Source of the DNA: Rhizophagus irregularis
Taxonomy: Eukaryota
Direction: 5' to 3'
Assembly (NCBI RefSeq): GCF_026210795.1
Contig: NC_089433.1
Location: 4,340,001 to 4,404,000, forward strand
Length of the DNA stretch: 64,000 nucleotides
A program made the translations under genes and the position numbers. The notes under the pieces are model-generated. The model did no database searches and had not been told where the DNA came from. It saw nothing but the letters and a program-made list of their open reading frames with translations. Each line of letters starts with the position of its first letter. Position 1 is the stretch's first letter. Of the stretch, positions 15,913-64,000 are shown piece after piece.

Positions 15913-16125
15913 AGGGATGCTCAACCAACTCGACTCATATAGAGGATAATCCTGTGTGCATAAAGAAGGAAAATATCACAAATCAACAATTATTGACGTA
16001 AAACGTCCAACCAATAATTACCAGAACACTTCCACTTTTGAGATTTTGACACCTGTTGATTTGATCAAGACGAGAATAATTACGAAACCTTCATTGTACG
16101 AGAATGAATCCCCTTTTGTATCACT
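15913..16125. other. ~210-bp insertion of unclear class in the Rep coding region
   Basis: Rep reads …IDESITT [insert] TLPTFIRTG…. Ends AGGGATGC and GTATCACT are weakly inverted. No convincing TSD. Confidence 0.45.
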
Positions 16126-16335
16126 TGTTGTTATAGATTCATCTATTATAAGTCTATTGGAATAACTTGATGTTTTTATAATTTCTGCTGCAGTTGGTGG
16201 ACGATAAACTTCATCAGCCTTATTTTGCCTCCAGATACGTTGATTATTTTGGTGATTACGAATTTTTTCTAATTGTAAATATGACCATGCTAACCATTTA
16301 GGATGAAGTCTAAATCGTGAATCAATATTTAAGAC

Positions 16336-19982: not shown

Positions 19983-21159
19983 TTTAAGACTCTTTATTTG
20001 ATATATTTGGAATATGTTTCTTCACGAGTAAGATTTGAATTAGAAGTATTATCATTATAATATCCTTTTCCATTTGGGAATAAATCAGGAAATAATAATG
20101 CTTCTAAATCTGGATCATTTATAGCTAAAGGTAATAAAGTACTATCTGGTGTTCTGATAAATCCTGCCATTAAATGAGAATAATGGTAATCCTCATTATG
20201 AATTTCAACATTAAAATTAGCATTAGGAACTACAATATCATTTGGCAAATATGGTGGTGCTGAATTATCATCAGGTAAATGAAAGGCACTTGGAAATGGA
20301 TTAGCTGTTTGTGAACCAGGTAAATCTAAAAGATGTGAATAATTTTTTAAAAAGGGGTTATGTTGTTTTAACCAATTGGCTGCTTCAATTAAAGTATCAT
20401 CAAGCCAAGAATTATTATTTCTTGATGAATTATTATCAAGGTAAGCACCAAGCATTCCAGAATATAATGTTAAAGCACGCATATTTTTTGAAAGGTTCAT
20501 TGATCCAGTTAATGTTCTGTATTCTGTATATATGGCACTTTGACCAGAAGTTCTACCTAAAGAATAATGTATAAATACGGGAGATAAATACATTCGTTTT
20601 CCTATAGGTATGGCTTGAATTTCATTTGGAATGGGATAAAGAAATGGAAATGCATATCTAGTAGTAGGTTTTTTACATGATAAATATACAGCAATGCGTC
20701 GTGGAGGTTTAATGTGAAAAGTTAATAATGATTTAGGTTCAGTTTCTGGGTATGCTTGCAAAAGAGGGTAAGAAAAATTCTCATCATAAGGTAACCATTC
20801 ACATTTCTCAGGATATATTAGACGACCACAAAATGCACATACAGCGCAAATAAATTGATTTAAAATAGATAAATTAAAATTTGATAGCAGGGTTAAGAAT
20901 TTTGTGCTTGGTATCCAAGGGTCAATGGGTGAATAATTTACAATAATAGGCATTGAATTTTCATATCACCAAGATTGGTGAGACTGTAATTGATTTTGTA
21001 ATTGTCTTAACATAATTTCAGGATCACTTTGATGATCAGTAAGAGGATCTGTATCAAAAGTATAATGTTGATATGTATTGAAAGACATAGTAATTAAATG
21101 TAAAGTTAAAAAAAAATTATTAAAATTTTAATTTTTTTTAAAGAAAAAAAAAAAGGTTC

Positions 21160-42669: not shown

Positions 42670-43470
42670 GGAAAAAAACTCTTTCCCCTTTTTTTATTTT
42701 CGTTAGTTTTCCGCAGTAATTTTGCACAAGTTTAATTTTTTTAGTTTCTATTTGAAACGCCAAAGGGGGAGAGGCCCAAATGGGCATCTCTGTTTTATAC
42801 GAGGTTTTTAGTTCTTTTTATAACCTATATTATAAAGGAATATGACTTCTACACCCTATATTGAAATAGACTGGTCTTCCACTTCACAACATCCTTTTCC
42901 TCAACTCGGTGATCCAACACCACCTGAAAATGACTCAGATAAAATATTACATAATACTGAGCTGCCTACAGTACTCTCTTCTAAGGATATTTTTTTCCTT
43001 GATATTGATGATATTTATCCTTATACATACTCAACTCTTCACCTCGACGAAGATGAAATGGAAGATACCTATGATGATGAAGATTACTTTGAACAGTTAC
43101 TACATAATGAAATAAATGCTGAAATAGAAGAAGTTAGCTATGGAGGAAATAATATACCTTCATTTTCCAACACTCCTTTAACTCCCATACAGGACAATAT
43201 TCCTTTACCACCTTCGGATATTGCGCCTATCTCAGAAAATTTACTCAAAGACGGGAAAAAAACTACCCTCTTGGTCTCCCTGGAAAAATTTCACGTGACT
43301 ACGCCAAAATGATCAGGTTATAACAAGATTTATGAAATCTGCCGATCTAGGAGTTTCTTATTCAAGCTTGCTGATCGTGATCAAAACACCAATGAAATTC
43401 ATTTGAAGATATACATGAATGATTATCATATGAAAACTAAACCGATTAGTTATAACAACACAAGTTTGTT
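42670..43470 (+). mobile_element. 5' part of a second, diverged copy of the 8236-11209 retroposon, cut off at 43470
   Basis: 5' UTR and ORF (MTSTPYIEIDWSS…NDYHMKTKPISYNNTS) match 11209->10425 on the opposite strand. Similarity stops abruptly after caagtttgtt. Confidence 0.9.
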
Positions 43471-44912
43471 AGTAGTATATAAATCCCAGTTCTGGCTCAC
43501 TTTTCTCGGAGTCCAATCCTGGTTACCTTTTTCTTGCTACCAACTCATTGCTCCCCCACCGGCTGTGGGTCCAATTCTAGTCACCTTTTTCTTGCTACTC
43601 CCATTACTCTCACACCGGCTGTGGGTCCAATCCTGACTACCTTTTTATATTTTTTACCTACTTATATCCTACTTATCTCATAATCTAAACCGTTTATTAA
43701 TATTTTCACCTACTTATTTCATAATCTAAATCATTTATTAATATTTTCACCTACTTACCCCAACCGAACAAGAAATAGGATTTCAAAGCCAACGGAGCCA
43801 AAAAAGGTAAGGAAATATTAACCCATCCAGGAAACCAGCCATGGGGTCAATAGAGCGGAATAGCAAGGCAAGCAATTTCTCTTATACCGAGAAAAAATGT
43901 AATTGAATAAAAGATTCATATATAAAAGGTTTACAAGATGTCACAATACAGACCATCACTAAGACGTATACTAGGTCAGTTTGAACTCAACATAGAAGAA
44001 TGGGTAAAGGAAATAATGTGGTATTTAGATATAGCATATTTAAAAGCTTTAGATTCCGAATTAGGCAAAGAAAGTATGTTAGTATCTGGATTAGAAGAGC
44101 TAGTAGAAATATTTGATGAGATGTTAGAAGGTGATGATATATGGATACATCCATCACTTTTATCACGAATAAGATATTCTATTCTACCAGATGAGATGGC
44201 AATATATGAAAGATTTTCAGATATCATTAAGAACTTCTCAGAGGATAAAGAATTAGCATATGCATTATTAGACTTAGTAGAAATATTATCAAAAAAGAAA
44301 CCTTCAACATTCAACATTATAGATTACAATATACAAAGAATATTCACAAATCCTAATGATGAATATAGAAATGAATTCAGCATCTACCATATTAAAGGAG
44401 ATGAAGATATGGACGAAGACACAGATGAAGACATAGATGAAGTAGAGCAGAATGAATTCAATGAATACTATCAGAATCTTGCACCGACCACCAAGAGTCA
44501 GCTGGATAGACTAAAAAATGAGTTGGCTATAACTCTATGTGATGAATGTCTTATGCCAATAACACAGGTCGAAATATAATATACCGGTCATCAATCGGTC
44601 ATATAACTGATTGGTACCTGATTGGTAGCTGATCTGTTACTGATTCATTCATTCAGATACCAACCGGTCATCAATCAGGCATTTATTTCAATCGGCTACA
44701 CATCAGTTGTATGACCGATTGGTGCCGATTGGTGACTGATTGGTGCCAGTTTAACAATCGGTAAACAATCAGCCATCTGTCATCTATATTGGAAGTTGAC
44801 CGATTGGTTGCTGATTGGATATTGTTGACTATCAGTCATCAATCGGCTATCAGCAGGTTGAATTATTGTCAATCGGGTACCAATCAGGCATATGTCCGAT
44901 TGATACAGATTA

Positions 44913-45198
44913 CAGCTATTTGCGAAATAACGGACCACTTACAGCTATTTGCGAAAATAATGGACCACCTAATTCATTTTCGACTGCGTATGAAATTTTC
45001 ATACGCAGTCATACGCATGGTAATATCTGCCCAGACCATCAAACTCATTTTTTGAGTTTTTCATATGTAATCATCCGCAGTTATATCACAATAATTTTAG
45101 CAGTTAACTATGCGTATATGACTGCATATGGCTGCGTATGAAATATTCATACGCAATCGAAAATCGAATTAGCTGGTCCGTTATTTTGCAAATAGTTG
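44913..45198. mobile_element. TA-flanked MITE in the CACTA left subterminal region
   Basis: TA-CAGCTATTTGCGAAATAACGGACCA … TGGTCCGTTATTTTGCAAATAGTTG-TA. The left TIR is locally duplicated. Confidence 0.75.
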
Positions 45199-45799
45199 TA
45201 ATAGATGATTTGTATGTAGCCGATTGATGCTCATTCAATAAATGTGCTTTATGATTTTATCTGATCTAAGACTTATCGAAGAATAAAAATTCGATACTAC
45301 TGGCCGACTTATTTTAACTGTTACTAGTAAACCGAACAATGATGGAAATCATAATAAAAATGTATGTACCCACATTCTTTTATATTGCATAAGCTAGTAA
45401 ATGATTTATTCTAAATAATAAACAATTTTGTCACCAATTGTATTAAAAGATTTAATAATTCTCCTAATTACCCACTGAAAATTTATCATTTGACTATACA
45501 TGATGAAATAATGTGTACAAAATGAACAAGGGAATATACAAGGAATGATATTTAATAAAGAAAAAATAGGCAGAAAGTCGAAGATTTTTATAAAAAAGAA
45601 TATCGTTGGATGATTAAAGAAATAATTGAAAAAAGAAATATTACAATAATATTATTTGAAGGAAGTATTTTTAGAAAAAAAAAATTAACTGTATGTACTA
45701 ATTAATATACATAAAATTCGCAAAAGCAGGGGAGGGGGGATCGGTTATTAGTGAAAAATAGGTAAATAGAATACAAAATATAGGAAATCACCACCATCA

Positions 45800-47828
45800 C
45801 AACACCACCACAATCACTACCATCAATCGTCCATTTCAAGATAATCATCGTCAGAAAGTTGGTCAGAAGGTTAGCCAGAAGGTTGGTTGGAAGATTGGCC
45901 GGAAGGTTGTTGGTTGGAGGATTGATCGGAAGGTTGTTGGTTAGAGGATTGATCGGAAGGTTGTTGGTTGGAGGATTGATCGGAAGGTTGTTGGTTAGAG
46001 GATTGGTCGGAAGATTGGTTAGAAGGTTGGTTGGAAGATTGGTTGGAAGGTTGGTCAGTACTTGTTAATAAAACAGTCTCTTCCATTTCTTCCTCCCCTT
46101 CTCCAATGTCAGCATCATATCCATCATTAAAGGACTTTTCACTTTCTGCAAATTTCATCAAGTCATACTGCTGGTCTTGACGCTGGTCCAGCTGCTGGGT
46201 GACTGCGATCTTTAACTTTCCTTTATATCCGGAACGAGTCCAATGCAGCGCCAACAAAGGCGCCGCCGGTTCATTATTACAAAAACAATTGCCCGTAACT
46301 CGCTCACGTAATTTTCTATTATTTGGTTGTTCGGTTCTTAATCGGTCAATATATTCACGCAAAAATAATCGTAACTTAAAAAAATTAAAATAGTTGGTAA
46401 AATTAAAAATAGTTAGAAATAGTTAGTAAATAAATTAAAAATAGGTAGAAATAGTTAGTAAAATTAAAAATAGTCAGAAATGGTAAAATTAAAAATAATA
46501 AAAGCAGGAAGAAATACTCACTGTGTCAGATCTCCACTTAAGATCTTTAACAATAATATTGTTTCTCCTGTTTTCGCAATCAGTCTCGGATTCCTCGGGT
46601 GAATGGTAAGCGTTATTGTCAATTATTAATTGTAAGTCTTCGTCCTTAAATTTCTTGACTAATGAATTTTTCACCATCTGTAAATGTTTTATTAGTCTTC
46701 CTCTTTTTAATCTTTTCTGTATTAGATAAGAAGTTAGTATTAAGCAAATATATACACTGTACAAAACTTTATTTACTCACGTCGTGGCGTCTGGAATTGA
46801 AATGTTTTCTTTTTTCTTGCAGTTTTTTTCTTGACGATGACCAATTCTTTTTAAGGTGCTCTTCACGTCGATGATGATGAAGGGAGTGAATTATATCATA
46901 TAAAATTTCGTTAGAAATAGGAAATATATTATTATTAATATTTTCCATTATACTAGGTATAATATCATTAATAACGCGATTTCGCTGATTAGTGAATGTT
47001 TGACCCAAATCAATCCTTCTCCCTTCTGGTAACGCATCATACTTCCAAATAACTTCCTTCTATATAAAATCAACAATATCAGTTAATAAATATATATAAA
47101 ATTAATTTGAGATATCCTTATTTACCCTTAAGGCTTCTCTTAGATCTTTTGGCATATCACTTTTCGTCAAATAGAAGGGAGTATTTGAACTATTTGAGCT
47201 ATAGGAGCTGTCCGAATCACTTGAATCGTCTGAACTTGATTGGACTGGGGCTTTTCCCTTTGCTTTATCGCTGATGGCTTTTCTGGAATTTTTGTCGCCA
47301 TCGTTAGTATTTTTTTTTTTGACGGCCTTTTTAGTACCCCTGTATTTTTCATTAGTAGCACTGGTTACAGCGCTTACATCTTCTTTTTCATTAGTGGCGC
47401 TGGTTACAGCGCCAGCGCTTTCATCTTCTTTTTCATTAGTGGCGCTGGTTACAGCGCTTTCTTCACCTTTTTCACTAATACCGCTAGTTACAGCGGTGTC
47501 GCTTTTTTCCATTTTAATTGTTATATCCTCATCTGACGATATAAGAATTGGTTCTTGTTGAGAACCAGCCTGTGAAGAATCCCGTGAAGAAACAGCCCAT
47601 GAAGAAACAGCCCGTGAAGAACCTGGCACCCCATAGGGTTCATTATTTTGCTGTTCTTGTTGTCCTTGTATAATATTCGCAATTTTTTCAAAAAAATATT
47701 TGGCTTGTTGGGTAAAAGCTATTAATTTAGATAATCATTAGTTTTTAGTAATATCCTGATATCTGCTGTCCGCCGATCAACTTACCCAATAGCTCGTCTA
47801 CTTTCTCTAAATCTTTCTTATTGGACAT
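45800..47828 (-). pseudogene. Multi-exon CACTA accessory gene A (TnpA-like position) with repeat-rich tails; probably disrupted
   Basis: Exons containing MPKDLREALR | KEVIWK…DLGQTF..Q…RRHD | KRLKR…AYHSPEESETD…IIVKDLKWRSDT | LRLFLREYID…HWTRSGY. GT..AG boundaries. Confidence 0.65.
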
Positions 47829-48019
47829 ATTTAATTCAAATTTTTTAAATTTTTTTAAAAAACATAAAAATATCCACAGTATAGAAAGAAATCAGTATTT
47901 TTTTTTCAGATCGATTATTTTCATTATTTTTAACAATTTTAACAATTTTCAATTGTTCTAACAATTAACAATTAAATGATTAATAAATTTAATAAATTAA
48001 AATCTTGACAATTAATCAT

Positions 48020-48290
48020 TAGACTAATGATGTAATGATGTAATATTATACGCGAAATTTGCAGAAATTAAGCAACACCGGTATATGTTATATGTTATTT
48101 AATAACATATATCATTGACTTACAACTTTTCTATAATTTATTATTTGACTGTAACGATGTAATGATGTAATATGATACGCGAAATTTGCAGAAATTAAGC
48201 AACACCGGTATATGTTATATGTTATTTAATAAGATATATCATTGACTTACAAACTTTTCTATTATTTATTATTTGACTTTATTATTTGAC
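48020..48290. repeat. ~125-bp tandem duplication
   Basis: gatgtaatgatgtaatat..tacgcgaaatttgcagaaattaagcaacaccgg… occurs twice. Confidence 0.85.
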
Positions 48291-48312
48291 AAATATTATA
48301 TCGAAATAAGAC

Positions 48313-48762
48313 TTACTCGCATATTTCACGTATTTTAATTTTACCGTCTTCATCCTCCTCACCCTCCTCACTTCTGATATTATTTATTTTGACAGAGGAT
48401 GCTAACATCAGAGCACTGCTGAACGAATTTACTTCTTGATTATTTAATAAAGTTCCCATTTCTGAATTATTAAGTAGGGATAGTTGAGTTTCTAATATAT
48501 CGATCTTTTGTTGTAGAAAATCATTTGCTTCTTTCTGCATACTCATGATTTCCATTAACGCACGATTACAGTTTTCTAATTCTACAACCTTTTTCCGAGA
48601 TTCTATATCCCTGATCGTTGCATGATTCGACATTATTTGTAAAGAGTCATTTACTCGCGTTAAATTCTCATTCTTTCGTATCAGGTTTTGCCTAATGTAT
48701 TTAAGGCTACTATGTTTATGCTTTCGGCCTATTATAACCCCTAGGATTAAAATAAAAATCAA
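48313..48762 (-). CDS. Hypothetical coiled-coil protein with a hydrophobic N-terminal stretch (CACTA cargo); start uncertain
   Basis: 149-codon ORF with a heptad pattern. No family recognised. Confidence 0.35.
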   Translation of the reverse strand: MIFILILGVIIGRKHKHSSLKYIRQNLIRKNENLTRVNDSLQIMSNHATIRDIESRKKVVELENCNRALMEIMSMQKEANDFLQQKIDILETQLSLLNNSEMGTLLNNQEVNSFSSALMLASSVKINNIRSEEGEEDEDGKIKIREICE

Positions 48763-49656
48763 TTTATAACCTTTGACTATTTACAAAAAAATGAGATAAA
48801 AAAAAAATGCAGATATAAAAACCGAATATTGTGATATTCGTACGAAAGACCAATAACTATAAGAAAAAACCGGTATGAATATATAAGATAATTGTTAAGA
48901 ATGTTTATTATTATATTAAAGCGGAATCGGTTTATATAAAAGAAAATCGATAACCGTAAAAAAGAAACTGACTTGAATGTAATCTTTGTTTTCACCGACC
49001 TATTAAAATTGAAGGATATGCATTAAATTTTCAAGTAAATTTGTTCCATTTGATCATTATCGGTATACCTGTAATAAATTTTTGAAATTACAATCCACTT
49101 TCAAAAAAACTTTCAAACGTAAGAGATGACCGGCAGAAAGCTGATGAACTTATTTATCATTGAGTTTTTTTATAATCGGCACGATTTTTATTGCTGCTTA
49201 CAGACTAATTACTCATGCATGATTACCTTATAAGAAAATCAATCAAATAAATTATATTGGAACTTTTTTATTGTAACTTTAATGCTGCAGTGGCGTATTG
49301 GTTAGGGAATGTAATACCTGGATTATATTTCTGAGTTCAGTACCTGCTGTATGCATTACTTTCCAGAATATTTGACCATAACCGTGAGTTCTCTGGACCG
49401 GTTGGCTTGGATGCCGTGAGTCCTTTGGACCGGCCCGAGTCTTGATATTCTGATCTTTTTTGTATATTAACAACAGTCGAAGGGTTATTTAACTATCATT
49501 TTAGTTACTTGAATTGAAATAGTCGTGTAACTAATTAATTACTCAAAATAAAAATATAATACATCGTACACTTCCATTAAATGTTAAAGTAAATCTGCAT
49601 ATTTAAAATTTATATTTTCACCAAACAATAGAATTCTATTATACCAGTAAAAATTC

Positions 49657-52600
49657 TCACAAATGAAACTGCCTATTTATTGGGATTACAGCATTATATG
49701 TGATAGGATTCTTTTTGCCAATTACAAATTCACCAGATACAAAGCGACTATATAGGTAATGAATTGGAATTAAACAATCTCGCTCTATCTCATAAAATTC
49801 ATTTCGCCAAAGTTCAATATTTGAGCTTTTTTCATCACCATCAATACTTGTATAAAATCGGGTTTTCTGGTTTGGCGCCGGTTTATACCATTTAACAAAT
49901 ACTAATCGATGTGTTTTAAGTTCACCCGAAATTCTCACAGTATGTTCAAAATAATACTGTACCTGACCTGGAAATAAGTCGGTCGTTTCATTGTTTTGGA
50001 TAAATTTCGCCAAAACATTCACATTTTTCAGGTATCGGGGTGCCATTGCCGATCTAAACACTTCTGCTGAGATCCTAACCCGCCCAAATTGATCAACCAT
50101 ATTTGGCACAACTATTGCATCTCTTGAACTGGTTGATGTTGACTCAGCAATTGTTACAAATTGCAAGTCGTAAGCAATATTATAATATTCGGTTAGGATT
50201 TGATAAATATCATCAGGCAAGGCAACCCGATTTTTACATGGCGTAAGCATTTCTCCAGGAAATGGTTCGCTACTGACAATCGTTTCATCAACTTCTTGGA
50301 AGAATACCTTTCTAAATTGATACAGCTCAGTGTAATTAAAATTATCGTAAGCTGCCAAACTTCTGGAAGTTGATCGTGGTTGAATTAATTTTAAAGCTTC
50401 AACAAGCTTAACATTATTTGATTGAACGGATACAAGGTTATCAAGTCTCCAATTCCGCATTATAATTCGTAAAAGTTTGGGTTCAATTTGACGATTACTA
50501 TTGGGAAAAGAGCCTATTGATATATTATTTAATAAATTATTAGCAAGCTTAAACGATTAAACAGTTCACAAAATACCTACTGAGGATACCGTTCATTCTT
50601 TCAAAGGAAAAACACCAGAAAGAATATAATGGACCATAATCCTGGCAACAATCGGCAATATGAAGATACAAATGGAGGTTTGGGGTTATTCTTTCCGGAC
50701 CATAATTTTCTTCAATTAACGTTGCAACTTTGAGCAAACGTTCGTGAGCTTCGTTCAATATGTCACAGTCAATAATTCGATAAACTAGCAGAGAACAAGC
50801 TCTAACGAAATTCCCCAAAATTTGTCGATCTGGTTCAGCGAGCAAATCCCACATCAACGGGATAGCATAAATTAGAACAAACGTTTTCCATTGGTCGGCC
50901 GTAAATCCGGAAAATCCTTCTCCAGTTGCGATTTTATTTGGAATACGCCCCAAATCCGTGGGTATTTGTATGTATTTTGCTCGCTTTTCCATTTTTTCTA
51001 GATCTTGTTTCGTGATCTTGTTGCCATCGATCCATAATTTTTTAATTATCCAATGGGCTATTCCGAGGAACAAACAGTGCATTGGATCTACGACAAGGTA
51101 CCTTATCGGATTAAAATACGGTAATCGAAGCAGTTCGGACCATCTAACATGGGTTGAACTCACATGACGTTTTCTTTCCTCCTCAGATTTACACAGTCTC
51201 CAAAGCTCAGCATTCCGTCGATGTTCATCCAAATCTCTTTCTACAAACCAGTCAACCATATCATCAAAGCCGCCAAAACTTGACTTATTTCCATTTCCAT
51301 TTGAATTTGCAGTTTTATAACACCTATGGCAGCTCACTGATGCTGATATGTGACCGCAGAGCTTCCTCGCCGCAGGAATGTCATTCGAACAGCATATTAA
51401 TGCCAATCGGATATTTTTTTCAGCGGCGGGAATCTCAATCCCATCCCAGAACTCTAATAACTCATCAACAATTGGAGCGAGATAATGGTTAATTTTGTGT
51501 AACTTAACCTCGCTTGGTCCTGGTAGTAGACCAAGCGTCAACATATTTTTTTTTTAAATCTAATTTCACGCGGTAGGTTACAAATAACCCCATAAATAGC
51601 CCCACAGCTGTATACAGATGACTCGAAAGGCTGAAACCAATCGAGATTAATCATAATTCCCAAGTGGGAATCTGCAGTCTCCGGTGTAAAAAATGGGACG
51701 TCTGAAGTGTCTGGAAAAGTTTTCCAGATTTTACCGTCATAAATATCTGCTAACATACCATTATTTACATCCCGATTGGTCCATTTTCGTAGTTGTTGCT
51801 TGAATTCTGGTCTCTGGTACAAATTGTTTATCTGTATTTTCAAATTCGGCAATGGAAATAACAATTTAGGGCGTCTTTTATTTCCATTACCATGCGGTAC
51901 TTGCACAGTTAATTCTATTCCGCAAAATTTTTCCTTCGGTTTCATTGGAAATTCTATATGCGTACATTTAAATCCTTCATCCGCAACAACATCAGCTATA
52001 TTATATAATGTATTACAGCTCGGACATACTGCGTAAGACATAGATTGGTTGTCGATTCGTAATAACTTAGTCGCAGTGTATAAAGAAGACGGGAAATCTT
52101 TGAATCTTGTCTGATTAGCATCCATTAATACTTGATGAAAAAACTTTATTAAAGAATCTAGTGCAACATCCGGCAAGCAAAATCTTGCTTGATATTTGAA
52201 TATCCATGTTAATATCCAAGAATCTGCAATATTAACATTTGTGTCGGGATATGCAAATTCTGAATCATTTTCGGGCGCAGCAAATTGTTCAACAGGATCA
52301 TCGTCCAAATCCATATTGTCTTCTGGAGAAATGTCACCTTCATATTCATATTCATTAATCAGTTCATTGCTTTCCTTATTGGTTTCCGGTTCCCGAAACT
52401 GGTCTTGTCTACGCCTTTTTTGAGGGACAAAACCGGCAAAATCTGATTCATAATTATTATTAAATGATGTTGACTCTTCTTGTCCGGTCATTTCTTTTGA
52501 TCTTGATGATCCTTCTACGATCGGACTATAATAGACGGTATGTGCTGGCTTAATTCGATTGTTTCCGGGTAAAAAAGGGACAAATCCGGAAATGCTAGAC

Positions 52601-52710
52601 GCTAAATGACGCTCTAAATCTAGATGTCTTTTTCTGGTTCTTTCATCAACATATTTGCCATTGCATTCCTTGCAATCACATGATACTTTATATCTAAGTT
52701 TTGTAGACAT
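49657..52710 (-). pseudogene. CACTA/EnSpm Tnp2 (Transposase_21-type) transposase, frameshifted in a poly-A run at ~51545
   Basis: N-terminal CxCxxC; YAVCPSC; LDWFQPF; GAIYGVICNLPR; LGLLPGP; NDIPAARK; DPMHCLFLG; TPNLH; YGPLYSFWCFSFERMNG. One intron at ~50515-50580. Confidence 0.93.
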
Positions 52711-53999
52711 GATTATGTTTTAGTAAGATCGAAGCGTTCAATGAAAAATTTGAGAATTTCTACGTATGTATCTTATAGCCTATTTATGAATGTCAAAATC
52801 GACGAATAAAGAGCTTTTAATATGTACAATTTCATATATTAGTCCAGTCTGAATAGACTATTATTGCTTAATGGCATGTGAAGATAGGAAATTGTACGGG
52901 ATATTAATGAAAAATTAATATTAATCGGGTTTTACTATAGCGAAACCAGAAAATTATCACGCGGTCCGTCCGTTTTGGTAATTCGCTCAAATGATTTAGT
53001 TGCAAAAATATCGGACTTGACCCTTCTGGTGACATCATCTTGACCCTTATTAAAATATATTATGCGGGTCAGCACCGCGTGGTGGGTTAAGAACGATACT
53101 GACATTCGCGAATTAATTATATTGCAGAGCGAAACGTTGTTCTTTTTTACCATATTATAAGTCTTTTTTTTTTGGTCTAAAATTTTCAGTTCTTTCAGTC
53201 CTTTATAGTAAGTAAAGTTATAAAATCTTGTCGTTGGATTTCTGCAACGACTGAAGTTAAAAGCCCGAAGGCTTCCGAGCCCTCTACCAACAAGGCTTCC
53301 TAATAGATAAAGAACCGGACCTTTTTTATTCCAGAGAACCTCGGAGGCTAACCGATACATAACTTTCTCTTTTTTTTTCAACATAACTTTCAATAGAGTT
53401 TACAAAATGGGAAACAAAAAGCTTCGTAAGGAAGAGTAAGTAACCCTTCGTGTCAGTTAACTTATCAAAAATTGAGATATATTTATAAATTTATACAAAA
53501 AGCAGCCCGGAATCAGAAATCTTATACGAATCTAGTTCAGAATCAGAATCAAAATCGGAATCGGAACTAGGTACATTTAGTATGTCGTATAATTCTGCTT
53601 ATTGTGTTCTAAACATTCTGATTCACTGCTTAATGGTCAATATACAATTGATAGAATTAAACCCGGAAGGCACTCAAATTCTTGATTCTGATTCTAGGCC
53701 AAGAGATGACAAGAAAAGAAAAAGGTCAAAAGAACGACGATACCAACATGTATCTGAAATGCCCAAAGATTTGAGAGAAGCATTAAGGGTAAACAAAACT
53801 TTCGCTGTATTTTTTATTTTTTATAAATTTACTGATAATAATATATTTTTAGAGAGATCTATTCTGGAATCAGGCAAGAATGCCTCAGGAAACTCAATTA
53901 GATATCGAAAAAACATTCGAGCTTCAAAAGGATCTTGTAGTTAAAATGATTGTGCCAAATTTAATGAAAACATTGGATCTTGACACCTACACCATAGGG

Positions 54000-56900
54000 C
54001 AGTGATGTGCATTGGAAGCTTCCAATGAAATTTATTGGAATTGGAAGTTCCATTGGAAAAAATTGGAAGAATTGGAAAGATGCCGATCTTCCAATGTTTC
54101 ATGTGCATTGGAAGCTTCCAATCAAAATTCTTGGAAATTGGACATAGTAATTGGAAGCTTCCAATGGAAGCTTCCAATACAAAATTAGTAATTTTATTGT
54201 CACGAATGACGTAAATGACACGTATATTAATTATCAAAATTACAATACGTTTTTATGTGATCGTTTCATTCTTTTTTTAATAATGAAAAGACCCAGAACC
54301 CACCGTCTTACTAAATATATAAAGGTTCTTGGAAAACAAAATTCATGTAATACCTACGCGGCATGTATTGCTTGTTTTGAAAGGTTGGAAAGTAGTGAAC
54401 TTTCAAGAAATACTTTTACAAATAAAAAACCGCAAGTTAAAAATTACTTGAAAAATTGTCCATATTTTCGAGAAAAAATTGGAAATCAAGAAGAACTAGA
54501 TGATATTATTAATTTGACAGATAATGAGATAGAAGAAGAAATATGTCAAAAACGTAAAAAAGTGGATAATGAATTTGGTAAGAATGATGAAAAAGTCTTA
54601 AAGTATTTAAAATCTTTGCAGTATAATTTCAAAATTCCAAAATTTAAATCAATAGAAGAAACAGGTTCGGTAAAGTCATTTGGGTCATTTGCTTCAACAA
54701 CATCTGCACGCAACTTTAATTCAAAAAATACAATTAAAAATAATCTCATTCGCACTCCTACTAAAAGTGAAATACCAAAATTTGAACGTTTTTTATTAAG
54801 AATGTCAGTAGCGAATGGTTTTGCATTTCAGTGGATTGATCACCCTGCAACCTTGGAACTCTTTGAATTTTTAAATCCACATCTCATATTACCAAATAGA
54901 AAAGCTCTATCTAATCGTATATTAACGAAAGAAACTGAAAACTTGAATACATTGAGAAATGATAAATTAATTAATGATAAAGTTGGGGTTGTATTAGCAT
55001 TTGATGGTTGGAAGAACATTTTAAATCAGCATATATTCGGATCATTATTTATATCATCTTCAGGTGAAATTTTAATATGGGAAGCTTTGGACATTAGCAG
55101 TGAACGTGAACGGTTAATTGAAGTAATACCAAAAATAACTGGATTAATTCAAGAAACTAAAAGATTAGGTATTAAACTTAATGCAATAGTGTCAGATAGT
55201 GCACCGGCTTATGCTGCAGCACGGTAAATAAATAAAATTATTAAAATGGATGCATGATTAATTTCAAACTATTACTTATTTAATAATTTATCATAGGCGA
55301 CGTCTTCGATTAGAATATGCAGAAATTGTCTTTCTTCCTTGTTTTGCACACCAATGTCAACTAGCAATCGGAGATATTTTTAAAGAATCATCAATTTTGA
55401 AAACTGCATCAAGTAAAGCAATTAAAATTGCTTCTTACTTTAAAAATGCAAATAATAGTTATTTCATTAGTAAATTGCGAGATATACAAAATGAATTGTA
55501 TGAGAAATATTATTCAATTGTAATTCCTGGTGAAACAAGATGGAACAGTCATTATTTCTGCTTTAAAAGTCTCATTCGATCTAAACAAGCTCTACGAGTA
55601 ATTTTTTTTTTTATTTATTTTTTATAATAATAATACGACAATTAAAAAAGTTTTTTTATTATTTTTAGAATTTGGCAATTCGTTACGAACGTCCACAAAT
55701 TGGTTCAGGAGATGAACTTTACTTGAATTCAGAACTTTGCCAAATACTTCTTGATAATGATTGGTGGGAAAAAATTGAGCTTTTGCAAGACATTTTATTA
55801 CCTTATTGTGGTGTTTTAAATAAGCTGCAATGTGATAAAGCGCGTCTTTATGAAGTGCTTCATGCTCTTGGATATTTTATGCAATTCTGGAAGCAATTTC
55901 CCGATACAGATTTGGGCAATCAAATGATCGATCGATTAGAAAAACGTTGGAGTCAATGGGAGCAGCCATTATTCTTACTTTCTTTTGCTCTCCATCCAAA
56001 ATATCGTTTTGCATATTTCAATTCTGACCTTAATAATTTATCATTTACTTCCTTAGGACGATATTTGACATATTATTATAAAGCATGGTTTAAAAAACGC
56101 CCATTACGATTATTATTGGAATTTGAAGATTTTCGTCAGAAAGTTGAACCATTTAATAATGAGACTTTTGAACAATTTGGAGATGATGCTTTTAAATTTT
56201 GGGGATACGTAGAAGGTGATTATAAAGAATTGGCTGCAGTTGCTTTAAAAATTTTTGGTATGTGTGTGAATGCTGCATCTGTTGAACGAATGTGGTCTTC
56301 CATGGGTTTTTTACATACAGTTCGTTGTAACTGATTAAAAGTAAGTTGTTTAAAGCTAGAACTTCATTATTTAGTTAATATATATATACCAATTTTGATA
56401 ACGAATTAATTAATTTAATTATTAAACAATGGTTTATTTATTAATTTATTTTATGGCGAGTTTTTTTATTAGATCCTTTAGTATTTGTTTGATGTTGGGT
56501 TTCTTATTTATTTAATTATCATTTCTTTTATTAATTAAAATATTAAAATTTTTTTTTTTTTAATAGAATGAAAAAATATTAGCAATGAGTCAACTTCGGG
56601 CATCTATTAATTTTTCGTTAAGAGAAAAGGAATTACAACAAAGTCAAATCCAATTTTTGGATTCAAATGCTCTTCCAATGGAAACTGATTCTGAAGTTTT
56701 TACGCCAAATTCAAATATTGAAGAGGACGAAGATATTGAAGATAACACTATTGTTACTCCTGAACATTGGGAACAAGAATTGAGAGAGTGGGAAGAGATG
56801 TTAATAGAAGAAGAGGTAGCACGATTGGAAGAGGAAGAGGAATTAAGGAGTAATTCAAATAATAATATGGAAGGTGATCTCTTAAGCGAATATATACATC

Positions 56901-57285
56901 CAGCAATAGACGAAAAAGCAAAATGGGAGCTTAAAAGTTTATTTAGTTCATCTCTTAATGCTCCTAATTACTTAAATATAGGATCAAATGAATAAAACAT
57001 AATAAAACTTTTTTTCGTTTAATGCCTTTAAAAATTTTCATTTTTATTTATTTATTTTGTCAAAGTGGGAAACAAATAAGAAGATGCTAGGTTGTGATCA
57101 AGGGACTGAAAATAGCCTTTAAAAATTTTTGTATTGGTATCTGATTTAATTTTATTGGATAAAATATGTTCGTGTAATAAAGTGCTTCCAAACTTCCAAT
57201 AAAAATTCATTGGAATTGGAAGTATGATTGGAATTGGAAGATTTGGAAGTCCAAATATGCTTCCAACTTCCAATGCCCATCACTG
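54000..57285. mobile_element. hAT transposon nested in the CACTA element
   Basis: TIR CAGTGATG(T/G)GCATTGGAAG. 8-bp TSD CCATAGGG. TTGGAA/TTCCAA subterminal repeats. Confidence 0.95.
54283..56995 (+). pseudogene. Multi-exon hAT transposase with one visible premature stop (56332)
   Basis: LAFDGWKN; IVSDSAPAYAAAR; PCFAHQCQL; GETRWNS; LHPKY; NAASVERMWSSMG; RCN*LK, where RRNRL is expected. Confidence 0.92.
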
Positions 57286-58849
57286 CCATAGGGGAAGGTG
57301 TCATATACGAGATGATCTATCAGCGGCACCGCCACAAAAGGGACAATCTTCGGGTCAAAAATAAATCAGAAAATGATATAAAGAAAGAAACAGGACGGAA
57401 ACACCAAAATTCACGATGATCGGAGGTAAATATAAATGTTATATTTTACTAATCATCCTAATCATCATTATTTATTTACGAGTTTTTTATAAAATAGAAA
57501 AGAAAAAAAAGATCAAAGACGATCAACAATTTAAAAAAAATTAATGATCCGTTGATTGAAAAGTTCAGTAACGAAGAATTGCGGCCAATAATCACAGAAA
57601 ACGGCTATCATAGCCCGGAAATTTCAGAAAGCGAGGACGAGCGAAACATAATCGTCATGCGTAACCTGCGATGGCGTTCCAGTACTGTAAGTGAATTTAT
57701 TGAAATGGGTTACATATAACTGGCATATGCTAATTCATTTTAAAACAAAGCTGCGCAGATTTTTGTACTATGTTGACAGTAATACAACAAAAGGCGACAA
57801 AAAGCGTGAACGGGTGTACAAGCCTAGTGAGTACGTTGAAGAAACGGCGCCGAATAGCGCGCCTAGTTGGACGAAATCAGGCTACGATGGGCCATTAAAA
57901 AATCCAGTTGCCAAGGCGATTAGTAAATTACAAAATAAATGAAATATGTCAGTAAATTTAATAAATATAAATAAATATATCAGTAAATTTAATAAATATC
58001 AGTAAATTTAATAAATATATCAGTAAATATAATGCTTGAGTCAAACAGATTGAAAAGAAATTAAAGACTGAGACAACCTTTTTGGTTCAATTTTCACAAT
58101 ACCTAATTTTTTTATTTTATTTCATCAACTGACAATCATACCGATATACCGATATATCAAGCTAATTTAGCTGCGGATTACCAGCCAGATTATTTTTGAC
58201 ATTAATTTAGAAATTGACATATATACGCAAAGTTGCTAAATTTTGTAAATTTCACGAGTCGGGCTAACTAATAAATCGGTATCCGTATTTGCAAATATAT
58301 TGTTATAATACGCAAATAGTCCAATTTGATTAGTGATCTGGATCATCGAAATTTAATCTGATTGGCCAGATCTCTGTTTGATTACGATAAATATGGAAAT
58401 AAGCACATTTTGTTTACAACAACCTTTTTACCTATTTGCGAATTTTTCTTCTTTTTGCCGTTTGCCTATTTGCGAATTTTTCTTCTTTTGCCGTTTTGCC
58501 TATTTGCGAATTTTTCTTATACCATCTTACGAATGCGTTGCCTATTTTTTGTTTATTTTTGCTTATTATATCACCGTTTACTTTCTACACCCATAATATA
58601 TGGTGTGAAATTATTGGACTCGTTCACTGACAATGGTTGACATACTGGTATGTCAGTTACTCAGCTGTACGAGTTTATAACAAATTAATAATAATAAGCA
58701 CTTTCACATTCAACAATCGTGAACGGGAATATTCCAATTTTATTCTGGAGACAGATACGGAAACTGTTATTTATCGCTAACCTTCACTATTTCCTTTTTG
58801 TAAAACAGGTTTCATTGAGTTGTGTTTCAAATATCCTCCTGTTTTTATA

Positions 58850-60950
58850 GGTGCGAGAACATGCCGATTTTTTGATGAATTTAATACTTCTTTGCTCCTC
58901 ACACTCAATCAAAGTGAAATATAGAACGACAATGCATATTTCTTTCGATTTTCATTTTACTGAGTGTAACTTTAAAAATGGTAAGCGAATATTTATACTG
59001 ATCTTCACTTCTAACGAAATAAACTTTATTCGTTTTCAGCGATCAGAAATGAAATGTATATATACCGATTTTGATAAACTTCATTTAGAGGCAAGCCTGA
59101 CTGATGGGTCTAATGGTATTATGGTAAGTAATAATAGGTATACTTTTTTTTGATATAACATTCTAGTTATGTATTTTTTTTCATGCATATTTTTACATAT
59201 AGTACGCTGTGGTCTGGAACCACCCGAGATTTTTGACTACCTAGGGATGAAGTTGTAAGGTGCTTGTACCTGATAGGCTAGCCTCCTCTGATCTAGGGTC
59301 TCATTAATCGGGAGACGAGGTGGTTCCTAAGTACCTTCCACATCAAGGGCGGACATTTTTTGTAAAATCACACGTTGGGAATACTATCTCGTAACGGATA
59401 CTTCAAAGACAAAAGGAGCGAAAAGCCTTCAGTTTGTTGTTAGCGGTGAAGATGTAGTGGTCGTGCCATTTAATGGTTGCGTTGATTGATTGATATACTC
59501 ATATTTTGTAGGATTAGCTAATACATGAGATTTCTCGAAAATCGGAAATGAACACTGCCGATTTTCACCCTACCGACATATATTTTTAAATTCATTTTCT
59601 GCAATCAGAAACGAAGTGTATCTACCGGTGTTGAAAAACTTTAAAGGTGAGTTCATTCCTAGCACAATTCGTTTAGATAATTAACGTGACGGTATCTTTA
59701 AATTGTTCCTACTTTCAGCAATCGGCAAACTCATCTCTGATATCAGTAACTATGACCAGTTTTATGGTGGGCTAATGGAGTAAAATAGGTATGCTTTTTT
59801 TTGATATATAACATAGTTATGTGTATTTTTTCATGTATATCAAAAGGAGCGAAAAGCCTTCAGTTTGCTAGCGGTGAAGATGTAATAATGATCGTGCCAT
59901 TTAATGGTTGCGTTGATTGATTGATTAACGTATGCCTTACTCATATTTTGTAGGATTAGCTAATACATGAGATTTCTCGAAAATCGGAAATGAACACTGC
60001 CGATTTTCACCCTACCGACATATATTTTTAAATTCATTTTCTTCAATCAGAAGCGAAGTGTAACTACCGGTTTTGACAAACTTTAAAGGTGAGTTCATTC
60101 CTAGCACAATTCGTTTAGATAATTAACGTGACGGTATCTTTAAATTGCTCCTACTTTCAGCAATCGGCAAACTCGATTTCTGATATCAGTAACTATGACC
60201 AGTTTTATGGTGGGCTAATGGTACAAATAGGTATGCTTTTTTTTTTTGATATATAACATAGTTATGTGTATTTTTTCATGTATATCAAAGGGAGCGAAAA
60301 GTCTACAGTTTGTTAGCGGTGAAGATGTAGTGGTCGTGCCATTTGATGGTTGCGTTGATTGATTGATTAACGTACACCTTACTACTCATATTTTGTAAGA
60401 TTAGCTAATACGCGAGATTTCTTGAAAAATCAAAAACACTGCCGATTCTCACCCTACCGACATATTTTCTGCGATCAATAGCGAATTGTGTATTTACCGA
60501 TTTTGACGAACTTTATTAAAGGTGAGTTCATTCTTAGCACAATTCGTTTGAGATATTTAACGTGTCAATAATTAACGTTTCGGTCAGATCTAAATTGCTT
60601 CTACTTTCAGCAATTGGATAACTCGATTTCTGACGAAATGTAGAAGTACTGTGCCGAGGAGCGAAAATTAATTATTGCATTTGTCAGCGGTTCTTTATTA
60701 AATAGTTGCTCATGTTGATTGATCGATTAATGTACGCCCTTATTCATATTCTAATTCGCAAGATTTCTCAAAAAATCAGAAATGAACCGTATTTTATTTC
60801 ATTTTTAGAAACGAATTTGTATATCTATCGATTTTGACGAATTTCATTCATTCGATGATTAACATGATGGTCCTTAAGCTGTTCCTACTTTCAGTAATCG
60901 GAAAACTCGATTTCTGACGGACATTCGTTAGGAGTTTGGTAAGCAAGATT
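58850..60950 (+). repeat. ~370-445-bp tandem repeat (4-5 copies) rich in splice-site-like motifs, inside the CACTA
   Basis: ggagcgaaaa at ~59415, 59845, 60291 and 60657. Units contain AAAG|GTGAGT…CTACTTTCAG, AG|GTATG and TTTTGTAG. Confidence 0.75.
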
Positions 60951-61755
60951 TCATCACCATTTATTTCTAATAACTTGTTTGTTCGTTTAATGTATAACAT
61001 TTATTAATTCTTTATTTTTAAATTCGTTCCTGTTAGCAATCAGAACAATCAGAAACAAAAACGTACCGATTTTCGCTTAATCATATTACTTTTATTATGA
61101 TTGTATACATTGATATAAGTTCCCATTTGAAATAAATTATATTTACAACTATGATTGTACAATCAAATTTTTGAATATATTGTAAATTGTAATTAATAAA
61201 GCGCATGTAGGCTGGAATTAAAACCATTGTTTTTAATAATTTGTAATTAATAATGCGTAAATAAATATATAATAAATAAAATAGGTGCATCATAAACATT
61301 TTATAAAACCGATTTTACCAATCGGCTATTACAAATCAGCTATTAATCAGTCATCAATACATTATCAATCGGTCATTAATACGCTACCAATCGGTCATTA
61401 ATCAGATACTGCCCGATTGCTGTCGGATTAAGCAAATCCAATAAGTCATCAATCAGTTATCAATTGACCATTAATTGACCATCGTTCGGCCATCAATTGA
61501 CTCTCAATTTGTTACCAATCGGGCAGCCCGGATGATAGCCAGTTGTTGTCAGATTTTGGCGGAAATCAACTATCAATCGGGCAGCCCGATTGGTATCAAA
61601 TTGAGAAAATCAGTCACCAACCAGGCATCAATCGGATACCCGATTGATGCCTGGTTGGTGACTGATTTGGCATCTTTCGACCTGTGTAAGAAGCCAGGAA
61701 TGTGATTGCTCGATTTTACAAATAGAGGGTTTCTAGTTCCCAGTGAAACCATTTT

Positions 61756-62547
61756 TTACCTCTCACAATCTGGAATAGGTACATCACAAATAAAATCCCC
61801 AAAATCATTCGGATTAGAAAACAACTTCTGTAAGAACTTATAAATCATATCAGCAGCCAATTCAGTCTTAGTGCCAAATATATTAACCTTACCAGATTTA
61901 GGCCAGATATGTACCCGAATTTTTGATGTGAAGACTATAACAATTTTAGAATGAATATCACCCGCATCATTCTTAATATACTTTATTGGAAAGGGAAGAA
62001 TCTCATGAATACCATCTACAGATTCTAAAGCATATGCTAAGGTAGAAAGATGAATAAACTTATTACTCCCAATATTAATCACAAATTTGTAATTACACAG
62101 GAGAGCCTTATTTCCACCCACAAGTTCTACAGAAGAAAACTCAGGTAGGGAACATTCAGAAAGGTAACGTAAGAAGATAGTAACAGGATCAAAAGACCCG
62201 AAAACTTGTATACTACCAGATCTAGGAAAATAACGAATGGTATGTACAGAATCAGCTAAAATGATAACAAACTCAATGCAAGCATTAAAAGTGCTACCAT
62301 CCCCTGTACGTCGCCGTCTATTTAATGGATTGTCAGGTGTACTTTGTCTGCATCACCTCTCACCTTTTGGTTTAGACAAGTACTGTTCATAACCCTCAAA
62401 AGCTTTATGAATAAAGTTGCTATTAATGGCAATAACATCCTTAGTAGGTTCAAGCTTATGACCAAGCATGGTGTAATCAAGCCTTTCAACATTGATCTTA
62501 AATTCAGTAACAGTAAGAGATAGAGTAAGTTCACTAAAAGTAAGCAT
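61756..62547 (-). pseudogene. Intronless TBP-fold gene resembling asfarvirus B263R-type viral TATA-binding-like protein; 263 codons with one in-frame TGA (62353-62355)
   Basis: Reading through the stop gives …RRRRTGDGSTFNACIEF…IRYFPRSGSIQVFG…LCNYKF…IRVHIWPKSGKVNIFGTKTELAADMIYKFL. This is a two-fold repeat of the TBP-type (hydrophobic)F/W-x-x-SG-x-(I/V)-x-(V/I)-x-G motif, and is far from fungal TBP. Confidence 0.65.
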
Positions 62548-62651
62548 GTCTGGTTTTTTCTATTGATAGAAAAGAAATGTTCAAATTATTTTATCCTAAG
62601 AAAAAATCTAATTAAATAAAACTTCTTCATCAATATCTCATATGAGATACT

Positions 62652-63164
62652 ATGACAAACAATAGCTTACCTTTCGAACTTTTAGAAAAGATATTCAAAA
62701 CTTCATATGAAGGTACTTACTCCCGTTGGTATTGTCTTTGCAATTATGCATTAGTGTGTCGAAAATGGGCTGTAGTAGCAAACTCTCTCCTATGGGGTGA
62801 AACAGACCTTTATAACCACTATAATATTAAGGAGTTCCAAATGTACAAACATCTCACAAAACCAGGGACAGTATGTGGAAAATATATCAGAAAACTTAAT
62901 ATGGATGAGGTAAAATTATGGCCCATTTGTATTGTAAAAATGCTACAAGCTTGTCCCAATATCCAGGAACTTAGCATAATAGATTATCAATACTATGGTG
63001 GAAAAGGTGACGTTAGAGATTTGCTAAGTGAAATTCTGCATATATTACCAAACCTTTGAATGATAGATATCAGATATAGTCGATATTTTAAAAATAGAAA
63101 TGCCATTGAAAAACTTATAGAAACCCGTAAAGACCTAGAAATCAGAATAACATGGCAAATGTAA
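62652..63164 (+). pseudogene. Intronless F-box/LRR-like protein with a premature TGA at 63057
   Basis: SLPFELLEKIF…ALVCRKW..VANSLLW (F-box); YIRKLNM, CPNIQELSI and LPNL*MIDI (LRR-like). Confidence 0.8.
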
Positions 63165-63180
63165 TATTTGTAAAAGCTAA

Positions 63181-63325
63181 TCACTGCCAAAAAATTTGGG
63201 CACAGCCCTGTTACTGCCCGTCACTGCCGAAAAAATTTGGGCACTGCCCTGTTACTGCCCGTCACTGCCGAAAAAATTTGAGCACTGCCCTGTCACTGCC
63301 CGCCACTGCCCATCATTGCCGCAGA
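63181..63325. repeat. ~41-bp tandem repeat (CACTGCC core)
   Basis: cactgccgaaaaaatttgggcactgccctgttactgcccgt, ~3.5 copies. Confidence 0.85.
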
Positions 63326-63329
63326 AGTT

Positions 63330-63775
63330 TGGGAAACACATGGATTTTTTCTAGCAAGATGACGCTTTAATTTAGAGGGAAAGTCAAAACTTGCTCCACA
63401 TAGATGACAGGTTAATCTTTCTCGAGAGTGTGAATTTTTTTTAAGTCGATAGTATCCATCTGCAAGGAAGTCACGTTAGTTTTCCGTTTATGTAGAGAAA
63501 TTGGAATGGTAATTTTTTTACGTAATGATAGAGGGATGGTCAGTTGCCGATTTTGGAAATCTAGAATGACATTAGCACGATCAATCCAAGGTACACCTAG
63601 CAATAAAAAGTCCTTATCACTCTTAACAACCATGAAGTCATCTTCGATTTTTTTAGAGTTCTCCCCATCATACACAAGAATACCAAGACCATATACTGTC
63701 CCAATAGTATCAGATTTTGTCGCAACACTACTAAGGTCAGGAGCATTACTTCTATCGACATCAAGATTTAGGCGA
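63330..63775 (-). pseudogene. C-terminal half of a retropepsin-like aspartic protease, followed in the -1 frame by a CxxC..H..C zinc finger; 5' part cut by an LTR
   Basis: DDFMVVKSDKDFLLLGVPWIDRANVILDF (retropepsin C-terminus). -1 frame: KKNSHSRERLTCHLCGASFDFPSKLKRHLARKNPC. Confidence 0.7.
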
Positions 63776-64000
63776 TGTTACCCCTAGTTACGTGTAGAGT
63801 TACAATTTACTACGCCAGAAAATCATGTGGAAAATTAGGATCTACTGTGCCTAACTGTGCCAAGCCGACCTAGCCGCAGCCTACTTAGCCTATTATTTCT
63901 ATTATATTTATTATATTAATTATATTTAATATAATCGATATAATTATTTTATTTATTATATTTAATTTATTTATTATATTTATTATATTAGTTATATTTC
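63776..64000. mobile_element. LTR (same family as 31556-32067), runs off the window
   Basis: TGTTACCCCTAGT(T/C)ACGTGTAGAGTTAC… is near-identical to the sequence from 31556. Confidence 0.92.

Follow-up and report, generated by a model that had tools for sequence, protein, structure and literature searches.

Mavericks, also known as Polintons, are defined by a pair of genes, encoding a family B DNA polymerase (PolB) and an rve-type integrase, and their ends start with 5'-AG. Inverted repeats a few hundred bases long at their termini, flanking target-site duplications of 6 bp and a morphogenesis module (jelly-roll capsid proteins, packaging ATPase, cysteine protease) are further characters of the class. 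The locus considered here lies in a 64,000-nucleotide stretch of the Rhizophagus irregularis genome (contig NC_089433.1, positions 4,340,001 to 4,404,000), which is transposon-rich, has a GC content of 0.296 and is referred to below as the window. Its positions 43471-63775 are read as the outer arm of a dead Maverick/Polinton, split by a CACTA-type transposon and cut off before its Gag-like, integrase and PolB genes, with a probability of roughly 0.8. In the portions of the literature drawn on in this work, Mavericks are reported in R. irregularis, with recent expansion (PMC8647823), and are described as expanded only in Glomerales (PMC11952901). Passages on related elements state that G. intraradices Polintons have no detectable major capsid gene (PMC7805220) and that Maverick-type A32-like ATPases occur in Glomus and Rhizophagus assemblies (preprint 10.64898/2026.06.19.733378). 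A figure legend in Starrett et al. 2021 (PMC8502044) places the labels 'TBP' (TATA-binding protein) and 'Matrix/Capsid/NC/Pro' (Gag/retropepsin) on elements with an adintovirus-like PolB, and the portion of that paper used here confirms comparable elements in fungal whole-genome shotgun data and names Rhizophagus PolB-like sequences. A second relevant system is asfarviral: the B263R protein is described as TBP-like in the excerpts used from PMC5825884 and PMC7458399.

Linkage of the gene module to Maverick hallmark genes

Without the nested CACTA, the locus is a string of intronless, tightly packed and partly overlapping genes with a coding density of 0.77. It comprises an open reading frame (ORF) of 223 codons, a TBP-like gene, a divergently oriented F-box gene, a zinc finger and a retropepsin-like protease (Table 1). 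The gene density and the short gaps, which had been described from the letters, are confirmed by the coordinates. The same sequence-only reading had placed the hallmark replication and capsid genes outside the window; this agrees with the absence of PolB and integrase from the window in tblastn and of any capsid match in a Pfam scan. Because the hallmark genes are absent from the window, the membership of this particular copy rests on synteny elsewhere.

This synteny was followed with the window proteins (tblastn) in 29 loci, of which 23 are metagenomic, obtained by a scan with the TBP-like family alignment, and 6 lie on viral contigs. The protease is found upstream of the TBP-like gene, on the same strand, in 11 of the 23 metagenome loci. 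Eleven of the 12 loci that have no protease hold fewer than 900 bases upstream of the TBP-like gene; the remaining one (L023) has 2,180 bases there and no protease. Across the same 23 loci, 12 contain the zinc finger, 10 an F-box gene that diverges from the TBP-like gene, and 8 a member of the 223-codon ORF family that converges on it. The gene order is kept across lineages whose TBP-like proteins are 44-69% identical to that of the window. No protein of the module is better conserved than the protease (56-91% identity), and the protease-to-TBP-like order in the 11 loci spans at least four lineages. In a distant lineage (L018, 2423-4134; L019, 1415-4421), an ankyrin-repeat protein (Pfam Ank 5.4e-10) and several small F-box-like ORFs stand behind the TBP-like gene in place of the 223-codon ORF, so that the cargo of the arm varies between lineages.

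The hallmark genes appear where the loci extend far enough. Only L010 and L011 reach more than 3.7 kb upstream, and both continue into a Gag-like ORF of 743-750 aa with a CCHC knuckle, followed by an oppositely oriented rve integrase gene (Pfam rve 3.3e-10, 40.5 bits; cut-off 32.6). At the edge of L011 lie the C-terminal 363 aa of a polymerase, and the Atlas cluster of this fragment is named DNA polymerase. Longer relatives of this fragment number 7,658 at E<=1e-3 among 7,991 candidates, and many of those listed (homologue lists hold the best 120 rows of clusters at 90% identity) carry PF03175 (DNA_pol_B_2); the listed relatives include animal proteins about 50% identical and R. irregularis proteins that are 963 to 1,242 aa long and 79-81% identical. 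Two R. irregularis annotations show a comparable arrangement. PolB GET54113-54115 (RIR_jg31686) and the TBP-like GET54120 (RIR_jg31690) share a contig of 3,621,719 bases, and the integrase CAB4408612 and the TBP-like CAB4408616 share one of 45,329 bases. If accession numbers follow gene order, the spacing of four to five numbers is what the gene order of L011 predicts.

Because PolB and the rve integrase are the defining pair of Mavericks and Polintons, the module is most likely a Maverick accessory arm. The earlier proposal of a discrete, virus-like integrating element thus holds in the sense of a piece of a multi-copy element, given the homologues, the conserved gene order and the contig depth, whose sum over 43638-44575 exceeds the flank 5-25 fold in three runs. 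Likewise, viral hallmark genes linked to these ORFs elsewhere, which that proposal had looked for, are present as a protein-primed PolB and an rve integrase in L010/L011 and the two annotations. The further statement that the element fits no standard class does not stand, since this linkage is that of a Maverick/Polinton, a class already reported in R. irregularis.

The candidate terminus and points against the classification

The left boundary is formed by a dispersed repeat that breaks off at 43470, followed by new sequence beginning AGTAGT. Both self-BLAST and a base-by-base alignment support this break, which had been noticed from the letters. Positions 43001-43470 are 82% alike (472 columns) to the minus strand at 10882-10424, and the similarity goes no further than 43470. 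The two copies agree as far as ...GTT and then split, the copy at 43470 into AGTAGTATATAAATCCCAG and the other into CCCTAATGAC..., and in contigs from two public runs the repeat carries on beyond 43465 with unlike sequence. The sole visible junction has TTTGTT immediately before 43471. The interrupted repeat, previously labelled a retroposon, may instead be a Helitron tail. A Helitron Rep/helicase gene (Pfam Helitron_like_N 9.2e-18, PIF1 1.8e-29) has the other copy of this repeat immediately on its 3' side. The Helitron with these two domains occupies 8976-20965 on the minus strand.

Behind the break, the subterminal tandem repeats that had also been described are present as two arrays (Table 1). 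The AGTAGT start agrees with the AG start of Maverick/Polinton ends, which is weak evidence taken alone. The first 25 bases from 43471 occur only once in the window at up to 3 mismatches, and the terminal 19-mer is unmatched, again at up to 3 mismatches, in the 29 loci and in the viral contigs. The clean junction inside a repeat, the AG start and the tandem arrays favour 43471 as the true terminus, which is rated somewhat better than an even chance. At the corresponding side of other copies, L022 and L009 show no recognisable terminus where their contigs run out past the homologue of the 223-codon ORF. Both contigs stop at a repeated motif of about 60 bases (...CAAACAAGTC...AATCACAGGA...; L022, 1899-2384; L009, 2944-3285), which suggests that repeat-rich subterminal regions break the assemblies.

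A number of observations weigh against the reading of the locus as a Maverick arm ending at 43471. Within the window, self-BLAST reveals no inverted counterpart of 43471-43760. Among the contigs aligned to the window, no other copy is seen to share this boundary; none of the contigs listed bridges 43470/43471 or has a loose end at 43471, so that a shared boundary is neither shown nor excluded by them. The depth of 43471-43637 (about 170 bases) is flank-like and thus 5-25 times below that from about 43638 onward, and one run (X7) has no cover over 43471-43637 at 85% likeness. Given this low depth, the true end of the element could sit nearer 43640. The low depth may also reflect fast-changing repeats rather than a different origin, because sequence resembling the 56-bp unit occurs just before 43651 in other copies (15-letter loose ends). 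With respect to gene content, the window holds no PolB, integrase or Gag-like gene, and four of the eight L011 proteins are unmatched in it. The Gag-like assignment is weak (Retrotrans_gag 0.034, zf-CCHC 0.052, Rous sarcoma virus Gag 5a9e at E 0.004), and the L011 polymerase fragment itself matches no Pfam family and no PDB sequence. Linkage by accession order presumes that the numbers follow gene order. Finally, no capsid, packaging ATPase or cysteine protease is found in any locus, the far side of PolB being unsampled, and Pfam detects no D5 helicase or jelly-roll capsid gene in the window or in L010/L011.

The alternative that survives best under these points, although improbable, is that the module is a separate multi-copy cassette or host gene family that only sometimes lies beside Maverick genes, with 43471 as a cassette end or a rearrangement breakpoint. 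It would account for the fall in depth upstream of about 43638 and for hallmark genes standing beside the module in only two metagenome and two annotated loci. The gene numbers of the listed R. irregularis TBP-like, PolB and integrase proteins are also mostly not those of neighbours, with one jg-numbered pair among the matches listed and a second pair by accession. However, apart from the two metagenome loci with hallmark genes, none extends far enough to reveal them, and the gene numbers come from the best 120 cluster rows described above. In addition, intronless, tightly packed and partly overlapping genes with a conserved -1 frame are typical of a virus-like unit.

Cargo of the arm

The TBP-like protein, with its in-frame TGA read as X, has 67 homologues at E<=1e-3 among 557 candidates, none of which carries a Pfam domain. 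R. irregularis paralogues are 92, 86, 84, 78 and 73% identical, and metagenome proteins range down to 38%; an alignment of 30 family members has 18 invariant columns. At the sequence level, neither piece of the ORF matches cellular TBP (Pfam PF00352) at E<=0.1, and a profile of the 30 members finds no PDB sequence at E<=10. An AlphaFold2 model was made from the intact paralogue with 92% identity (predicted local distance difference test score, pLDDT, 88; predicted template modelling score, pTM, 0.77), with a basic, disordered insertion (about 30 residues) between positions 55 and 89. Foldseek matches of this model at E<=0.001 are TBP chains, with a query-normalised TM of 0.41-0.52. In VIA-align, the 38 best PDB entries are all TBPs (Z 11.6-13.8, 166-178 residues aligned) and the next entry falls to Z 7.6; the top superposition, 3eik_B (Z 13.8, root-mean-square deviation 3.0, 172 of 179 residues), covers the whole TBP core. 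The protein is accordingly modelled as a full TBP saddle of two tandem repeats.

Among the predicted viral structures in BFVD, the second-ranked match, which is the best over the full length, is a B263R homologue of Abalone asfa-like virus (TM 0.75/0.75, E 2.1e-17, 22% identity), followed by named TBPs of Terrestrivirus, Heterosigma akashiwo virus, ChoanoV1 and Yasminevirus. Relatives with 21-27% identity are found at the six viral-contig loci, two of them named GVMAG. BLASTP against the ORF of one giant-virus contig (L001) gives E 1e-15 and 27% identity over 255 columns, with the family motifs common to both. The gene had been called a transcription factor of the nucleocytoplasmic large DNA virus (NCLDV) type, and both the fold match and the viral-contig relatives support this kinship; DNA binding is a prediction.

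This kinship raises the possibility, here considered very unlikely, that the locus is a fragment of an endogenous asfarvirus-like giant virus (giant endogenous viral element, GEVE) and the TBP-like gene a Nucleocytoviricota leftover. The nearest named structure and the six viral-contig loci would fit such an origin, as would the Asfarviridae-like region of 1.5 Mb published for R. irregularis (PMC10640383, as far as drawn on here). However, elsewhere the TBP-like gene has as its neighbours an rve integrase, a retropepsin, a Gag-like protein and a protein-primed PolB with about 50% identity to Maverick-type proteins of animals, and none of these is a giant-virus marker. The other four window proteins are unmatched in the six viral loci; the viral contigs hold no relative of the integrase and none of the protease alignment. 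No linked giant-virus markers (NCLDV PolB, RNA polymerase subunits, capping enzyme, VLTF3, capsid) occur in the window or in the 23 metagenome loci. The family is also multi-copy and present in runs under four organism labels, whereas the published GEVE is found in one of five strains according to the same portion of PMC10640383. The GC content here (0.34-0.36) is slightly below the 36.58% of the GEVE and does not separate this reading from the Maverick one.

Some genes of the module share a candidate promoter box. Ten of 24 module genes, among them the 223-codon ORF and the TBP-like gene of the window, have the motif A[AT]TTGAA[TC]A at 13-42 nt before their ATG. In 2,000 shuffles the count averages 0.24 and never exceeds 3, and 10 of the 14 occurrences in a background of 48 kb are these promoters, a statistic inflated by the post hoc choice of the motif and by the orthology of several promoters. 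The box presumably resembles the mimivirus early-promoter octamer. A second motif, CATCAATATCT[CT]A, likewise defined post hoc, is located just upstream of the F-box gene in four of four lineages.

The protease family is a retropepsin relative, as had been proposed from the letters. RVP_2 scores 20.3 bits, exactly at its cut-off, and gag-asp_proteas is found in five of six members at a best E of 8.6e-5, below its cut-off. The window copy is truncated: it is 75% identical to residues 169-287 of the L011 protease and begins just after the catalytic motif, so the D-T-G-S is missing together with the N-terminal part. The catalytic motif is present in all four relatives that cover it (L011, L018, L009 and L029; L017 repeats the sequence of L018 there). 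In all 10 copies examined (window, L009, L011, L013, L014, L016, L018, L027, L028 and L029), the zinc-finger ORF lacks its own ATG, is in the -1 frame relative to the protease ORF and overlaps the end of the latter. The overlap carries a run of A8-A10, which is A8 in the window (63412-63484, minus strand). A conserved -1 frameshift or slippage giving a retrovirus-like protease-zinc-finger fusion is the likely reading. In L010 (3148-3202), the protease ORF also overlaps the Gag-like ORF in the -1 frame across an A-run, and L011 (4440-4500) differs there by an indel. The arrangement hints at a Gag-protease-zinc-finger polyprotein made by two slips. That the protease and zinc finger are mere remains of a long terminal repeat (LTR) retrotransposon beside unrelated genes is the least probable reading: the Pfam matches to retrotransposon and retroviral protease families, the Gag-like ORF with its CCHC knuckle upstream in L010 and L011 and the repeat starting TG... 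that abuts the protease at 63776 speak for it, whereas L010/L011 have no reverse transcriptase or RNase H and an integrase (on the opposite strand) and PolB directly precede the Gag-like ORF there, the protease-to-TBP-like order is kept across lineages, and the 63776 repeat recurs at 31552 with a different flank, which marks it as an independent insertion.

The remaining two genes are the F-box gene and the 223-codon ORF. The F-box gene gives a Pfam F-box-like match of 2.9e-7 (30.6 bits, above the cut-off). The name F-box/LRR given to it earlier is therefore upheld for the F-box; for the LRR, no such family is detected by Pfam. The 223-codon ORF has only a chance-level Pfam match and no usable Atlas match. 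Its model is a helical bundle (pLDDT 65.6) with a best BFVD E of 0.14; its PDB matches are helical bundles of a generic kind (Z 8.9 at most), and the family alignment shows a conserved C-terminal Cys motif.

Taken as a Maverick with this cargo, an intact relative might operate as follows. The integrase would insert linear DNA, and PolB would copy the element from its ends by protein priming. The TBP-like factor of the element would bind the AT-rich promoter boxes of its own genes and recruit an RNA polymerase. This would be host RNA polymerase II; the polymerase of an asfarvirus-like giant virus infecting the same cell is a less likely candidate. The F-box protein may hook host proteins to the SCF ubiquitin ligase, while translation with frameshifts would yield the Gag-like protein, protease and zinc finger as a polyprotein in the fashion of retroelements. 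A bolder proposal, which is tentative and rather unlikely, is a glomeromycotan Maverick lineage that keeps PolB and integrase and has two foreign modules: a retrovirus-style Gag-protease-zinc-finger cassette expressed by -1 slips at A-runs and an asfarvirus-type TBP with its own box, A[AT]TTGAA[TC]A. If true, this would be a DNA element whose particle and mode of expression resemble those of retroelements and whose transcription switch resembles that of giant viruses, and it may be tuned to, or parasitic on, the asfarvirus-like giant viruses of these fungi.

State of this copy and comparison with known systems

By its reading frames, this copy is dead and without function of its own, with a TGA in the TBP-like gene, a premature stop in the F-box gene and a protease cut at 63775; all its genes that can be compared with a full-length relative are broken. 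The F-box stop is regarded as premature because homology to relatives of 207 aa runs on in frame to 63152; tblastn with the L011 F-box protein covers residues 1-169 over the gene. The 223-codon ORF is divided by the nested CACTA, an insertion that had been recognised from the letters and is supported by its inverted ends, TAA target-site duplication (TSD), tnp2-type ORF and empty site. Its ends, CACAGGTCGAAA... at 44563 and inverted at 61686, form a perfect inverted match of 12 bases starting with CAC, and the empty site is spanned without a break by contigs from four public runs (loose ends behind 44559). On the far side, the repeat that truncates the protease matches 31552-31777 at 94% over 233 columns; AT-rich sequence with a 9-bp period follows its start. 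The features are collected in Table 1.

Table 1. Features at and around the candidate Maverick arm (window positions).
Feature	Position	Strand	Remarks
Dispersed-repeat copy, interrupted at 43470	43001..43470	+	other window copy 10882-10424, minus strand
Non-coding end region, AGTAGT start; candidate terminus, possibly a terminal inverted repeat	43471..43937	+	
Tandem array 1	43511-43646		period 56, 2.4 copies, 80% matches
Tandem array 2	43668-43757		period 41, 2.2 copies, 93% matches
A[AT]TTGAA[TC]A boxes (candidate promoter)	43900-43910; 62580-62590		also in upstream regions in L008, L009, L011, L018, L019
223-codon ORF (orf213/218 family), first 208 codons	43938..44562	+	cut by CACTA
CACTA-type transposon, composite	44563..61686		17.1 kb; TSD TAA at 44560-44562 and 61687-61689
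tnp2-like ORF within CACTA	49657-52710	-	Transposase_21 1.5e-6, 28.0 bits, just under 28.6 cut-off
hAT-like ORF series nested in CACTA	54283-56995	+	Dimer_Tnp_hAT at E 0.038 only
Tandem repeats of ~442 bp within CACTA	59410-60564		
223-codon ORF, last 15 codons and stop	61690..61736	+	C-terminus matches L007 and L008 homologues
Gap between 223-codon ORF end and TBP-like gene			19 bp
TBP-like gene, giant-virus (B263R-like) type, pseudogene	61756..62547	-	263 codons; in-frame TGA 62353-62355
Divergent intergenic region	62548..62651		104 bp; one A[AT]TTGAA[TC]A box, 39 nt upstream of TBP-like ATG
F-box gene	62652..63152	+	open to 63059; homology continues in frame to 63152
Three 41-bp tandem repeats, F-box to zinc finger	63181..63311		
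C2H2/C2HC-like zinc-finger ORF	63293..63475	-	no ATG before finger; zf-C2H2 2e-4, below cut-off
Retropepsin-like protease, C-terminal 119 of ~287 residues	63412..63775	-	
Further repeat, start TGTTACCCCTAG..., cuts off protease gene	63776..64000	+	same start at 31552

The classification files a block of 'unclassifiable' virus-like genes of a model mycorrhizal fungus as a Maverick accessory arm and thereby aids the annotation of the large unclassified repeat fraction of such genomes. The point of interest is the content of the arm, namely a TBP saddle closest to that of asfarvirus-like viruses, an F-box gene, and a retropepsin with a -1 zinc finger; such a conserved cargo arm merits description. 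The locus is also relevant to the question of whether genes were exchanged between Mavericks, retroelements and the giant viruses whose DNA is present in this fungus. Intact copies, should they be expressed, would offer a small system for the study of how a virus-like transposon supplies its own promoter-recognition factor.

In the literature searched, no publication describes the B263R-type kinship, the F-box gene, the -1 zinc finger or the promoter box. The search also returned nothing on 'Polinton-1_GI' and no pertinent work on a Polinton aspartic protease in fungi. The main text of PMC10640383 does not mention Maverick, Polinton, TATA or B263R, and PMC4028283 and PMC3671162 do not mention Glomus or fungi.

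With regard to its TBP-like protein, the element is closest to the asfarvirus B263R type. The asfa-like homologue has 262 residues against 263 here, and the two-repeat saddle is alike. At 398-477 aa, the relatives from giant-virus contigs exceed this length, and their identity is no more than 21-27%. In contrast to Nucleocytoviricota, the gene is carried here by a small integrating element with no RNA polymerase gene in the parts seen. Cellular and archaeal TBPs (PF00352) superpose over the whole core but have no match at the sequence level.

As a mobile element, the locus resembles the Mavericks of Glomerales in the PolB and rve pair of its syntenic relatives, in its multiple copies, in its dense intronless genes and in the AG start of its candidate end. 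It differs from them in that this copy is a single arm without hallmark genes, and its cargo of TBP-like, F-box, protease, -1 zinc-finger and 223-codon genes is not mentioned in the portions drawn on of PMC8647823, PMC11952901 and PMC7805220. The elements of PMC8502044 carry no mention of an F-box, a frameshift, a promoter box or a link to B263R in the portion used here, but they bear TBP and Gag/protease labels as this module does. Judging by that figure legend, the unusual combination of a TBP and Gag/retropepsin with such a PolB has very probably been drawn before.

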